DNA of 64,000 bases. Source: Isurus oxyrinchus (lineage: Eukaryota). Under the pieces are notes generated by a model. That model worked only from the letters and a program-made list of their open reading frames with translations. It was not told the origin of the DNA and did not search any database. This document shows positions 19,814 to 45,385 of this stretch, one piece after another; the first letter of the stretch is position 1; each line of letters begins with the position of its first letter. Location: NCBI GenBank assembly GCA_026770705.1, contig JANJGN010000052.1, forward strand, positions 372,001 through 436,000, in the 5' to 3' direction. Made by a program: the position numbers and the translations under genes.

Positions 19814-19898
19814 CCAGGACCTGTCCGACTGCTCGTCTGGGGAGGAACTGCCCACATGCTCTGCTTGGGCTGAATGACCTCTTCCTGTGCTGCCCCCT
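19814..19898 (-). other. 85-bp exon-like module, candidate 5' UTR exon of gene A (copy 1 of 4)
   Basis: cag acceptor and gtaagt donor; paralogs at 26555-26639, 27203-27287, 33136-33220. Confidence 0.55.
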
Positions 19899-26126: not shown

Positions 26127-26675
26127 CCACTTCTCACTCTCAAGCTGTGAAAGAGAAAGGAGTTAATGAGACCTCACCTCTTGTCCGACAGCTCTCGAGA
26201 GATCAGAACTGCTTTTAGACAATGTCTTCACAGACTAATTTGATTCTCTGTGGGATGATAGGTGCTCAGCAGAGAGTTACAAGGCTTTAAGAAAAACAAA
26301 CAATGAAGGATTTGCATTTCTATAGCACCTTTCACCACCTCAGGGCATCCCAAAGCTCATGTCTCTGCACTTCCCTCATCCCTTGAACTAGAAAGATGTT
26401 CGGTACAACAGACTTGAGCCTCACACCCAGATCTCAATAATCAGTAGAAATCTTTCAAAGGCATCAGTCATTGGAATCTGTCTTTATAAAGTCACAACAT
26501 CAACAAAGGACGGTGTTGGTGGTGGAAGTGAATTCCAATCGTTCCGTTACTTACCCAGGACCTGTCCGACTGCTCGCCTGGGGAGGAACTGCCCACACGC
26601 TCTGCTTGGGCTGAATGACCTCTTCCTGTGCTGCTCCCTCTGTGTATTTAATGAGAAAGGGTTGATGTGTGTCTG

Positions 26676-26695: not shown

Positions 26696-27439
26696 GGATC
26701 AAAGTGACAGACCAGCTCATGTTTTGAGATGTTGGTGAACTGTTAACCCTTTGTGTCCTGACCCTGTGTTGATATTTCTGCTCACAGGTGGACAGTCATT
26801 GACCAGGAGTTTCTCCTGTGGGTCAGTGGGTTTCACAGCCAAATTCAGGGGGTCAGAATGTTGTGGGATTCAAGACCCCATTCAGGGGACGTCTGCCCCA
26901 CAGAGTAGACTGAAACTGCCCAGCGTCAGTCCTGAGGGAGTGCTGCACTGTCGGATGGTCATTACTGCACTATTGTAAGGTCAGTACTGAGGGAGATCTC
27001 CACTGTTTGAGGGTGAGTACTGAGGGAGTGCTGCACTGTCAGAGGGACATTAATCAGGGAGTGCTGCAATGTTGGAGGATCAGTACTGAGGGAGTGCTGC
27101 ACTGTTGAAGGGTCAGTATTAAGGTGCTGATTTACAAGACAGGACAATGGATTAGGAGCCCTCAGAACTCCCCCCGTGATTTCCAATCATTCCGTTACTT
27201 ACCCCGGACCTGTCCGACTGCTCGCCTGGGGAGGAACTGCCCACACGCTCTGCTTGGGCTGAATGACCTCTTCCTGTGCTGCTCCCTATTTGTGTTTAAT
27301 TAAAAAGGGTGGATGTGTCACTGTGAGACAAAATGAGGAAGTGCTTGGTACCAAGTGAGAAAGATGCTCTTTGCCTCGCACTGTTAGAAAACTGTTAACC
27401 CTTTGCGTGCCAAGAATGTTTTTGAAGGGCCATTGACTG

Positions 27440-30642: not shown

Positions 30643-30759
30643 TTATAAATTCCCATAAACAGAATCCTTGGCAAATTCACAGTTTGCGTAAAGATCATCA
30701 TCTGTATCAGGATTGACTCCGCGGTTAGATTTCATTTCCAGATCCTTCTCATCTTTCTT
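30643..30759 (-). CDS. Gene C: terminal cytoplasmic exon (KKDEKDLEMKSNRGVNPDTDDDLYANCEFAKDSVYGNL*)
   Basis: tttctattacag acceptor, phase 0, 117 bp to TAA; acidic-Y-x-N motif and terminal SxYxxL; absent from ORF track. Confidence 0.85.
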   Translation of the reverse strand, partial: KKDEKDLEMKSNRGVNPDTDDDLYANCEFAKDSVYGNL

Positions 30760-30857
30760 CTGTAATAGAAACAGAAATGATCAGAGTGACAATCAGAGTG
30801 ATCAGTGTTTAGTATTATTGATCCAAATCAAAAAATTCCATCCACAGTAGAGACATT

Positions 30858-32387
30858 AATTATTGATACTGAACGGGGTTTGATTATTGATCCTGAACGA
30901 TGTTTGATTATTGATTCTGAACGGGGTTTGATTTTTAATTCTGAACGGGGTTTGATTATTGATTCTGAAAAGGGTTTGATTATTTATTCTGAATGGGTTT
31001 TGATTATTGAATCTGAACGGAGTTTGATTATTGATCCTGAACGTAGTTTGATTATTGATACTGAACAGGGTTTGATTATTGATTCTGAACGGGGTTTGAT
31101 TATTGATACTGAATGGGGTTTGATTATTGATACTGAACGGGGTTAGATTATTGATACTGAACGGGGTTTGATTTTTAATACTGAACGGGGTTAGATTATT
31201 GATACTGAACGGGGTTTGATTTTTAATTCTGAACGGGGTTTGATTATTGATTCTGAACGGGATTAGATTATTGATACTGAACAGGTTTGATTTTTAATTC
31301 TGAACAGGGTTTGATTATTGATACTGAATGGGGTTTGATTATTGATACTGAATGGGGTTTGATTATTGATTCTGAAAGGGTTTTGATTATTGAATCTGAA
31401 CGGGGTTTGATTATTGATCCTGAACGAAGTTAGATTATTGATATTGAACGGGGTTTGATTATTGATATTGAACGGGGTTTGATTATTGATTCTGAACGGT
31501 GTTTGATTATTGATCCTGAACGGAGTTTGATTATTGATACTGAATGGGGTTTGATTATTGATTCTGAACAGTGTTTGATTATTGATTCTGAACGGGGTTT
31601 GATTATTGATACTGAACGGTGTTTGATTCTTGATTCTGAACTGGGTTTTGATTATTGATTCTGAAAGGGGTTTGATTATTGATTCTGAATGGGGTTTGAT
31701 TATTGATACTAAACGGGGTTGGATTATTGATACTGAACGGGGTTTGATTATGTATACTGAACGGGGTTTGATTATTGATTCTGAACGCGGTTTGATTATT
31801 GATACTGAGCGGGGTTTGATTATTAATTCTGAACGGGGTTTGTTTATTGATACTGAACGGGGATTGATTATTGATTCTGAAAGGGGTTTGATTATTGATA
31901 CTAAACGGGGTTGGTTTATTGATACTGAACGGGGTTTGATTATGTATACTGAACGGGGATTGATTATTGATTCTGTACGCGGTTTGATTATTGATTCTGA
32001 ACGGGGTTTGATTATTAATTCTGAACTGGGTTTGTTTATTGATACTGAACGGGGATTGATTATTGATTCTGAATGGGGTTTGATTATTAATTCTGAACAG
32101 GGTTTGATTATTGATACTGAACGTGGTTTGTTTATTGATACTGAACGGGGATTGATTATTTATTCTGAAAGGGGTTTGATTATTAATTCTGAACGGGGTT
32201 TGATTATTGATACTGATCGGGGTTTGATTATTGATTCTGAACGGGTTTTATTATTGTTACTGAACGGAGTTTGGTTATTGATACTGAACGGGGTTTGATT
32301 ATTGATTCTGAACGGGGTGTGTTATTGATTCTGAACGGGGTTTGATTATTGATTCTGAACGGGGTTTGATTATTGATTCTGAACGGT
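30858..32387. repeat. 24-bp minisatellite (ttgattattgattctgaacggggt), about 60 copies
   Basis: 8-aa periodic spurious ORF IIDSERGL. Confidence 0.95.
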
Positions 32388-32519
32388 GTTGGGTGTGAGT
32401 TTGGTTGGGTTTGGGAGTGACTGTATAAAACATTGCAGATACAGGAGTGGAGCAGCCATATCAATAACCAGGCTACTGGAGCAGCTGAGAGGCTGGGGAT
32501 CCTGTGGTGTGTGACTCAC

Positions 32520-32624
32520 CTGATTCCTCAAAGCCCAACCACGCTCACAGTTTTCATAAACAGGACCTCGATATTCATCAACACGGTGGTTCGATTTGAT
32601 TCCTGCTTTCCCCTCACCTCTCTT
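32520..32624 (-). CDS. Gene C: candidate cytoplasmic exon ((K)RGEGKAGIKSNHRVDEYRGPVYENCERGWALRNQ)
   Basis: Pyrimidine tract ends tttcGG with in-frame AAG 3 nt downstream; cag|gtgagt phase-0 donor fits the terminal exon. Confidence 0.6.
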
Positions 32625-33135
32625 CCGAAATAGAGATGGAAATGGACAGAATGACAATCAACATGATGTGTATTCGGTGTTGGGTTTGATTATTGGGGAG
32701 AGAGTTCCAGATTTCCACTCCCCTTTGTGTGAAGAAGTGCTTCCTGACATCACCCCTGAACGGCCTGGCTCCAATCTAAAGTTCCAGCCCCCTTGTTCTG
32801 GACTCCACCCGACCCCCACCACCCACCCCCACCCGAGGGAATAGCTTCTCTCTATCGACCCTATCGAGTGTTTAATCAGTTTGAACCCCTCAATTAGATC
32901 CCTCCTAAATCTTCTAGACCCGAGTGAATATAATCGTAGACTGTGTGTAACCTGTCTGCATAATTTAACCAGAAAGATGTTCTGTACAACAGACTTGAGC
33001 CTCACACCCAGATCTCAATAATCAGTAGAAATCTTTCAAAGGCATCAATCATTGGAATCTGTCTTTATAAAGTCACAACATCAACAAAGGACGGTGTTGG
33101 TGGTGGAAGTGAATTCCAATCGTTCCGTTACTTAC

Positions 33136-33220
33136 CCAGTACCTGTCCGACTGCTCGCCTGGGGAGGAACTGCCCACACGCTCTGCTTGGGCTGAATGAC
33201 CTCTACTTGTGCTGCTCCCT
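33136..33220 (-). CDS. Gene C: candidate 85-bp cytoplasmic exon (phase 2-to-0 reading GSSTSRGHSAQAERVGSSSPGEQSDRYW)
   Basis: acacag acceptor, gtaagt donor; links the TM exon (phase 2) to phase-0 exons; reading frame ambiguous. Confidence 0.5.
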
Positions 33221-33940
33221 CTGTGTATTTAATGAGAAAGGGTTGATGTCTCTCTGTGAGTCAAATCAGGAATTGGGGAACAATTGTGAAAACCCTTTCA
33301 TTGAAACGTAGGGCCTTAGTGTTGTGTTGTTAACAAACTGTTAACCCTTTGTGTCCTGACTCTGTGACGTGATTCCTGTGTAAAGCTGAGCAGTCGGTGA
33401 GCGAGTTTCAATTCACTGCTCACTCCAGGTGTTGAGGTGGATCTTCTGAAGGAGTAGATGTTGCTCAGCGCTCCTTAAAAATGTGAGAGACTGAACAACG
33501 TGTAAGAGGACGAGAGAAAGAATGAGAAGGAGAGCATTAGTGGAGATAAGAGAGAGTGAATGAGAGAGAGAGAGAATGAGAGAGAAAATGAGAAGGCGTG
33601 CATTAGTGGAGGTAAGAGAGAGAGTGAATGAAACATGGAAAAAGGAAAGAGATTGCATTCACTAACAAAAGAAAGGTTTTCATTTATATCGCACCTTTCA
33701 CAAACTCAGGAGGTCACAAGGTATCTTATGGTCCGGGTCAACCCTGCCAGTTACAGGACTGAGTTGTGAAACAGTGAGTGTTGGATGAGATGTTAAACGG
33801 TAGGTGAACATCAAAACTCTTCAGGGGCTGTGAAGGGTTTTGGATTGTAAAAGTTGCTATAGAAATGCAAGTTCTTTCTATAAGGAGAGAAGGTTGAAGA
33901 AAACATGTTCAAAAACAACCAATTAAACCTTCACACTTAC

Positions 33941-34037
33941 TTTCTCACACACTTGAAGATGAAGAATCCACTCAGTCCAACACTCAAACAGATTCCAGCT
34001 CCAAGCAATCCTGCTTTCCATTCATTGGAATCTCGCC
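33941..34037 (-). CDS. Gene C: TM exon (RRDSNEWKAGLLGAGICLSVGLSGFFIFKCVRK), no charged residue in the hydrophobic span
   Basis: ttttacag acceptor, gtaagt donor, 97 bp, phase 1 to 2; hand-translated. Confidence 0.88.
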
Positions 34038-35303: not shown

Positions 35304-35585
35304 GTTCCACAGTGATGGTTATGAATCCCTCCACTGCTCCATGTTCATTCTCTGCCACACACTGATAGTCTCCAGTGTCCCTGGATGTAACGTGAGGAAT
35401 CACCAACCACAGCTCATTGTTGGAACTTGTTCTGTTCATTGGGACATTAAGATGTCGCCACGTCAGGTTAGAAGCTGGGAAGCTCTCGACAGAGCAGATT
35501 ATCACTGTAGAATTCCCCTCAATTATATTGATCGATGAAGCGTTAATCATATCAAGAGAAGTAATTGAGAGGTTCTGTGGAGCAT
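35304..35585 (-). CDS. Gene C: C2-set exon (domain 5)
   Basis: tttag acceptor, gtgagt donor, 282 bp, open. Confidence 0.9.
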
Positions 35586-36064: not shown

Positions 36065-36346
36065 GTTCCACAGTGATGGTTATGAACCCCTCCACTGCTC
36101 CATGTTCATTCTCTGCCACACACTGATAGTCTCCAGTGTCCCTGGATGTAACGTGAGGAATCACCAACCACAGCTCATTGTTGGAACTTGTTCTGTTCAT
36201 TGGGACATTAAGATGTCGCCACGTCAGGTTAGAAGTTGGGAAGCTCTCGACTGAGCAGATTATCACTGCAGAATACCCCTCAATTATATTGATCGATGAA
36301 ACGTTAATCATATCAAGAGAATTAATTGAGAGATTCTGTGGTGTGT
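36065..36346 (-). CDS. Gene C: C2-set exon (domain 4)
   Basis: ttcag acceptor, gtgagt donor, 282 bp, open. Confidence 0.9.
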
Positions 36347-41021: not shown

Positions 41022-41279
41022 ATTCAGTGGGAATTCTAATGGGCAGAGACTGGGAACTGCCCAGGATACTTGTTGCTTCACAGTAGTAGGAGATTTCCTC
41101 ATCGAATCCATAAGGAACTGTAATAGTTTGACCAGCGAGCGCGAGATTCGTCATCTTTCCTTGGGAGATCTTAAACCAGGTGAAATTGTGGACTGCTGGA
41201 TTCCCGTCACTGGAACAACTTAGAGAAATCACCTTTCCTTTTTCCAGTGTCAGCCTGACAGACGTGTTGTGAGGAGAAT
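41022..41279 (-). CDS. Gene C: C2-set exon, domain 3 (DSPHNTSV...LSCSSDGNPAVHNFTWF...YYCEATSILG)
   Basis: aag acceptor, gtgagt donor, 258 bp, phase 1/1. Confidence 0.88.
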
Positions 41280-41787: not shown

Positions 41788-42075
41788 ACTTTACACTCAG
41801 AGTAACGGAGCTGACCACTCGATGGCTGGTTTGAGGGTAGTCGCACGTACAGCGGAGAGTTCGTCCATGATGCTTGAACGAAGGGTTAAAGGTCAGTAGA
41901 GCGGAAACCTCACCACCGTTCTCTGTAATGTTGCTGACCGATGAAGTCAGCAATTCACTCCAGGTTAGATTGGGGTGGTTATCAGGGCAGGTGTAGAGGC
42001 ATTTACAGATGATATGTGCAGGAGTCCCCTCCTGTAAATCCTTCAGGAGCACAATAACTGGCTTATCTGGAGCAT
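41788..42075 (-). CDS. Gene C: Siglec domain-2-type C2 exon (DAPDKPVIV...ICKCLYTCPDNHPNLTW...HHGRTLRC)
   Basis: tacag acceptor, gtaagt donor, 288 bp; Cys+6 interdomain cysteine. Confidence 0.9.
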
Positions 42076-45339: not shown

Positions 45340-45385
45340 CTTGCAGCAAGCTGATGAAGATCAGTATCAGACCGACCTCTCCCAT
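45340..45385 (-). CDS. Gene C: leader exon coding part (MGEVGLILIFISLLQ); acceptor at 45399
   Basis: 46 bp, phase-1 donor gtacaa; same SLLQ-G ending as gene A leader. Confidence 0.88.

Follow-up and report, generated by a model that had tools for sequence, protein, structure and literature searches.

Which signal the cytoplasmic tail of gene C could pass on, and how many of its tyrosine motifs reach the protein, are the questions raised by this locus of Isurus oxyrinchus. The window, that is the whole stretch of DNA analysed, comprises 64,000 nucleotides of contig JANJGN010000052.1, and positions below refer to it. A first-pass annotation had given gene C a multi-exon tail with three Y-x-N motifs and an ITIM-like end. 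On balance we favour the reading that this is a Siglec/MAG-like tail module of about 90 genes, in which the Y-x-N motifs likely recruit Grb2-family adaptors, and that in gene C itself exon c2 is probably either left out or begins one codon later.

Judged by its open frame, gene C is an intact Siglec/MAG-like receptor of a mackerel shark. Its exons run in the order leader, V, C2, C2, I, I, transmembrane (TM), c1, c2, c3. With the acceptor at 32621 the ORF is 1914 nt long and encodes 637 aa, the sole stop being terminal. The exons and motifs lie as follows.

45340..45385, minus strand: leader exon of gene C, phase 1, matching the N-terminus of XP_041037222.1
44163..44519, minus strand: Siglec-type V-set exon, with Tyr replacing the sialic-acid-binding Arg (YYFY, against YYFR in MAG)
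41788..42075, minus strand: C2-set Ig exon 1
41022..41279, minus strand: C2-set Ig exon 2
36065..36346, minus strand: I-set Ig exon 1, its donor joined directly to the TM exon in RNA contigs of 2/4 runs
35304..35585, minus strand: I-set Ig exon 2, with an RNA joint to the TM exon
33941..34037, minus strand: transmembrane exon, 97 nt, phase 1-2, a hydrophobic stretch without charged residue
33136..33220, minus strand: cytoplasmic exon c1, 85 nt, phase 2-0, homologous to a D-type 5′ non-coding exon
32520..32624, minus strand: cytoplasmic exon c2, a phase 0-0 cassette of 105 nt (family acceptor) or 102 nt (AAG at 32621)
32547..32558, minus strand: YENC, the first Y-x-N motif, in c2
30643..30759, minus strand: terminal coding exon c3, phase 0-stop, with YANC at 30679-30690 and SVYGNL-stop at 30643-30663
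30859..32390, no strand assigned: intronic 24-nt minisatellite, 63.9 copies

The four tail segments (TM to c3) were found where the first-pass annotation had placed them, on the minus strand, with GT donors and with AG acceptors when c2 starts at 32621. Their phases (1-2, 2-0, 0-0, 0-stop) bring YENC, YANC and SVYGNL-stop into a single frame, and the chain is borne out by joints in family-level RNA and by a RefSeq orthologue with the same tail. Two alternative starts had been offered for c2: 32621 follows an AG, while 32624 follows TTTCGG in gene C, yet is the normal acceptor of the family. The minisatellite-bearing intron measures 321-2361 nt among paralogues.

The gene C V exon passed the Pfam V-set model, and C2-set domains then follow. 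Its top 17 PDB matches were MAG, sialoadhesin, Siglec-5/7/8/10 and CD33, the best being MAG (E 6e-15); its Pfam Ig_CD22 score was 24.3, below the cut-off of 27. In sequence, the cysteine pattern is the unusual one of Siglecs, with two Cys near the B strand and one on strand E: CVVIPC and KNC align with CVSIPC and RNC of MAG. The essential F-strand Arg is absent, also in shark orthologues where the motif was matched. Because of this loss, binding of sialylated glycans by gene C is predicted to be absent, and we class gene C as Siglec-like rather than as a full Siglec, probably with another ligand. A D-type V domain that stands on the same c1-c2-c3 tail keeps the Arg (P0028). The multicopy state of the family, described below, argues against one-to-one orthology with CD22 or MAG. 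A Trp/Tyr-rich stretch of the gene C V domain, WYKYWYRWKY (44400-44360), is kept in zebra shark and could form a binding surface for something other than sialic acid.

Gene C is identical at 596 of 637 residues to the white shark RefSeq protein XP_041037222.1 (638 aa), and its V exon is 95% identical to a white shark CD22-like protein. Within the tail, 92/101 residues are shared with white shark and 48/101 with zebra shark, all three Y-x-N being kept. The white shark proteins XP_041037222.1-225.1, named 'myelin-associated glycoprotein-like', have the domain order and the three motifs of gene C; XP_041037222.1 is predicted and automatically named, and the literature searched yielded no functional study of it. 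Its model has one extra Lys at the start of c2, derived from a normal acceptor, which is lost in gene C, and isoform X2 (a RefSeq prediction) skips c2. Related tails occur in RefSeq models of basking shark, smooth-hound, bamboo shark and zebra shark, and c2 is absent from three RefSeq tails (P0009, P0033, P0034). Finding the tail is thus not new, since it already stands in RefSeq predictions for other sharks, and its earlier description as unannotated does not hold at the family level. In other genes with an Arg-less V (P0001-P0006, white and basking shark models; L159 and L163) a different TM is spliced to c3; the models P0001-P0006 read c3 out of frame into a short tyrosine-free end. Catshark and bamboo shark models with an Arg-less V and a different TM do reach the YxN motifs of c3.

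The tail is not peculiar to gene C either, as had been implied, for the genome holds 93 near-identical copies, 20 of them directly behind the other ectodomain type. Pattern searches matched c2 93 times, c3 137 times and c1 770 times; these are matches rather than proven genes and may include haplotype duplicates. All 93 c2 loci were taken for comparison of exons and splice sites. All four tail exons were present in 90, and among these complete copies 69 had canonical sites throughout and a full-length tail, while 10 had a truncated tail. A C2 or V exon of D-type, the Arg-bearing family, lay at most 5.5 kb upstream of the tail in 20 canonical copies; the head of the remaining canonical copies lies beyond this 5.5-kb reach. 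The V exon of gene C type gave 14 matches, an undercount given that further variants exist: 9 sit 11.1-11.7 kb ahead of a c1-c2-c3 tail, 4 lead to an ITIM/ITSM-like tail and 1 leads to another TM and then c3. Since the same tail follows two ectodomain types, and the gene C-type V stands ahead of several tails, heads and tails are, as far as exon order tells, shuffled in the cluster. Among the first 100 c3 matches, 34 had no c2 match nearby, and 31 of these are orphans behind an oppositely oriented gene start.

The Siglec-like cluster as a whole is very large, with 794 pattern matches to the D-type V exon (C52, C71, C121, C150, C189, C323 and other contigs). At 63571-61824 and 60651-58744 the window holds two tandem tails of another type, ending in LYAN and TEYAQIRF and also bearing one Y-x-N. 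Three gene C-type copies (L114, L115, L116) have no V exon in the 10 kb taken, and an oppositely oriented D-type start occupies its place, which suggests an inversion breakpoint. A broken D-type gene at 26143-24300 has frameshifts in its leader and V exons and an I-set exon truncated at its 5′ end. The downstream gene has two tandem V exons, one at 14040-13663 with Thr at the Arg position (YFFT) and one at 10457-10098 in which Arg is kept.

The tail had further been called unrelated to that of gene D. This is true of the last two exons, which match nothing else within the window, but not of c1, which shows 82-96% amino-acid identity to three segments ahead of downstream genes:

26555..26639, minus strand: c1 copy that serves the next D-type gene, a frameshifted one, as 5′ exon, 411 nt ahead of the leader exon
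near 27203-27287 and 19814-19898: further c1 copies ahead of D-type genes

In run X6, what follows the c1 donor matches a D-type leader exon. Among 36 c1 copies (L134-L167 plus the window), such a leader exon follows some 410 nt after 25, c2 follows 2, and neither follows the remaining 9. As RefSeq D-type proteins begin inside the leader exon, c1 is non-coding in D-type genes. Tails of at least three shark orders use it as coding sequence, and a basking shark model reads TM, c1, c1, leader. That c1 is a stray promoter fragment was rejected, because its peptide is found in zebra shark, bamboo shark and smooth-hound tails and a TM-c1 loose end exists. Just upstream of the c1 copies at 27287-27203, 26639-26555 and 19898-19814 lies ACTTCCTC, which we take to resemble an Ets/PU.1 site; TGACTCA in one copy is presumably an AP-1 site.

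Whether gene C makes all three motifs depends on c2, the exon with YENC, whose own acceptor is mutated; a three-motif gene C protein is therefore uncertain.

32625..32632, minus strand: mutated c2 acceptor, TATTTCGG in gene C and TATTACAG in most copies; the next AG ends at 32622

The acceptor is canonical (TACAG) in 81/93 copies, TATTTCGG (TTCGG) in 11 including gene C, and deleted in 1. An exact search for TTTCAG gave 0 matches, since the ancestral site reads TTACAG. Each of the 11 mutated copies has a gene C-type ectodomain: the Arg-less V is present in 8, and the other 3 have its C2 exons and no V exon within the 10 kb taken; one gene has a gene C-type ectodomain and a normal c2 acceptor. 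Nine of the 11 form one supported, shallow clade. On the tree the GG change needs 2 changes, and one origin is possible. An assembly error is an unlikely source, as the same two-letter change recurs in the 11 copies on 5 contigs. No AG occurs in the 95 nt ahead of gene C c2, and the first AG past the pyrimidine tract is the AAG ending at 32622 that the first-pass annotation had chosen. On sequence grounds, gene C must use this AAG 3 nt downstream or skip c2, and both outcomes keep its frame.

Splicing was followed in six runs of contigs, four per target locus, X1-X3 being one sample. The RNA nature of the runs is a guessed label, and spliced joints show an RNA origin for the contigs that carry them only; contig depths played no part in ranking isoforms. 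In the window, joints were seen from I-set to TM, from TM to c2 (3/4 runs) and from c1 to c2 (2/4 runs), as well as a loose end of 11 letters that matches c3. The lack of any contig from run X12 over TM or c2 is not evidence of absence. At paralogue L085, TM joined c2 in 2/4 runs, c1 to c2 was represented by one joint and one loose end, and c2 joined c3 in 2/4 runs from two studies, with short sides of 50 and 75 letters; a 13-nt loose end in one contig led from TM to c1. Every c2 joint listed uses the family acceptor (32624). At 33205 and 33207 every contig listed has the letters of paralogues instead of those of gene C and thus derives from a paralogue; none among the rows listed could be assigned to gene C. 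Neither a joint at the +3 site (32621) nor a c1-c3 joint was among the joints and loose ends listed for the window and L085.

The TM-c2 joints mean that c1 is skipped in family-level RNA, which shifts the frame into a tyrosine-free tail. In 65/76 canonical copies, c1 skipping gives a 32-residue tail without tyrosine. Only 8 nt separate its stop from the last junction downstream, so that by the usual 50-nt rule for decay the transcript would escape.

In our judgement, use of the +3 AAG, which would keep three motifs, has slightly less than an even chance in gene C, and skipping of c2, which would leave two, is a somewhat less probable but still close possibility; that gene C does neither, or is silent, is improbable. 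A non-canonical GT-GG intron ending at 32624 was rejected, because AG stands there in 81/93 copies, the same joints are GT..AG on paralogue L085, and the sole c1-c2 loose end displayed carries the majority-type letter.

The acceptor mutation may instead mark early pseudogenisation, spread by recent segmental duplication, of a gene C tail that is decaying and yields little or no signalling protein, while the family tail stays functional. The single shallow clade of nine mutated copies would fit this, as would frameshifts in 2/11 mutated copies, the lack of a V exon within 10 kb in 3/11, the missing gene C-specific RNA among the contigs listed, and the normal acceptor of the white shark orthologue. 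Set against this are an ORF of gene C intact over 637 codons, two outcomes, skipping and the +3 AAG, that both preserve frame, and a tail still open in 9/11 mutated copies. We consider decay rather unlikely, though slightly the most probable of the rivals.

For the motifs themselves, chance and conservation were examined. Shuffling the 100-aa tail 100,000 times gave at least three Y-x-N in 0.19% of cases (p ~0.002) and an ITIM-like match in 9.7%. Orthologous motifs were aligned in 12 tails chosen from 35 proteins for a c3-like end, a choice that favours conserved motifs: among these shark and ray tails the terminal Y-x-N was kept in 11/11 that reach it, the middle one in 11/12 and the first in 4/5 of those having c2. 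The full ITIM consensus (S/I/V/L-x-Y-x-x-I/V/L), which gene C fits, was found in 5/11. Asn at +2 is thus what orthologous tails conserve, in line with the Grb2-type reading made at first pass; the SVYGNL noted there is present, while its reading as an ITIM is weak. From 11/11 against 5/11, Grb2-type docking appears the better reading. Paralogues were uninformative here: omega was ~0.6-0.8 per exon in this genome, with little sign of selection, variant density (c1 0.38, c2 0.35) was no lower than in the intron (0.30), and motifs are kept even in the 31/34 c3 copies without c2 that are orphan fragments. Retention of YEN in 80/80 copies is circular as evidence, the loci having been picked by the YEN motif.

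In PMC5302901, Asn at +2 defines Grb2 SH2 binding with a preference for pYXNV, whereas two of the gene C motifs have Cys rather than Val at +3; there the YEN site of CD22 binds Grb2 and inhibits Ca2+ signals. For SIT, PMC2193021 separates Y90GNL and Y188ANS, described as Grb2 consensus sites, from the ITIM. SIT binds Grb2 and has been proposed to dampen signalling by holding it (PMC3177817). The output had been called adaptor-like; by analogy with these Grb2 sites of CD22 and SIT, which are linked to inhibition (PMC5302901, PMC3177817), this need not mean activating.

A conventional inhibitory tail, in which SVYGNL would be an ITIM recruiting SHP-1/2 with help from the other tyrosines as in CD22, is in our view unlikely. 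SVYGNL is terminal, fits S/I/V/L-x-Y-x-x-L and is kept in 80/80 full-length paralogues, Y+3 is hydrophobic in 9/11 orthologous tails, and the TM is without charge. Against these points, Y-2 fits in 6/11 tails only, two tails end in YANK and YANT, the consensus and shuffle figures above are weak, PMC2193021 places the YGNL of SIT and TRIM outside the ITIM class, and the cluster has a separate EYAQIRF tail with ITIM-/ITSM-like motifs (391 pattern matches in the genome). Equally unlikely is an activating LAT/NTAL-like scaffold in which Grb2-SOS would cross-link receptors and loss of c2 would turn branching (trivalent) into chain-only (bivalent) assembly: three Y-x-N lie within ~50 residues, c2 is a frame-preserving cassette missing from three RefSeq tails, and in LAT theory three sites give branched networks and two give chains only (PMC3291652), but no PLC-gamma-type site or palmitoylation motif is shown, and the first motif is lost in 1/5 orthologues and the middle one in 1/12.

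Under the favoured Grb2-family reading, ligand binding would cluster the receptor, Src/Syk-family kinases would phosphorylate the tail tyrosines (an acidic run precedes the second), and SH2 domains of Grb2, Grap or Gads would dock on the phosphorylated Y-x-N. The net effect would more likely be dampening than activation, given the analogy with CD22 YEN and SIT YGNL/YANS and a TM without charged residue. How many sites a receptor carries would depend on splicing: three (all exons), two (c2 skipped) or none (c1 skipped); the two-site form is annotated as white shark isoform X2 and the zero-site form was seen in RNA.

A more far-reaching version, which we put forward as speculative and doubtful, is a LAT/SIT-like multi-Grb2 tail on shark Siglec heads with a valence of 3, 2 or 0 chosen by splicing, an Arg-less subfamily hard-wired to two sites, and c1 doubling as the 5′ exon of hundreds of genes in a cluster of ~800 V matches. 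If true, Siglec-like receptors would have a third output class, with several Grb2 sites instead of ITIM/ITSM or a charged TM, shared by ~90 genes in a shark cluster that is itself very large, and the shark tail would offer a direct test of splicing-tuned Grb2 valence in an early-branching jawed vertebrate.

New here are the number of tail copies, the acceptor loss with its linkage to the gene C-type ectodomain, an isoform without tyrosine and the double use of c1. No paper on shark Siglec clusters, on the c1-c2-c3 tail or pairing YGNL with Grb2 was found in the literature searched, subscription papers being outside its scope. A CD22/sialoadhesin/myelin cluster was not found in the main text of PMC8455134 (one generic mention), 10.1101/2025.06.08.657570 and PMC11406177. 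The tandem-cluster tables of Squalomix may list the cluster.

MAG (Siglec-4) has five Ig domains as gene C has, and is the best solved-structure match of its V domain. Its long and short tails arise by splicing. Unlike gene C, MAG is a single-copy gene with the Arg in place (YYFR); its likeness to gene C lies in the V domain and is not claimed for the tails. CD22 (Siglec-2) likewise combines a V-set with several Ig domains and has a YEN Grb2 site beside inhibitory motifs (PMC5302901). Against the three ITIMs, single Grb2 site and sialic-acid-binding Arg of CD22, gene C shows three Y-x-N, no more than one weak ITIM and a V domain without the Arg. The YGNL and YAN motifs of the gene C tail recur in SIT (PMC2193021), and LAT has three Grb2-type sites as this tail does (PMC3291652). 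The transmembrane adaptors SIT, TRIM and LAT/NTAL have tiny ectodomains with no Ig domains; their likeness to gene C is one of short motifs only.
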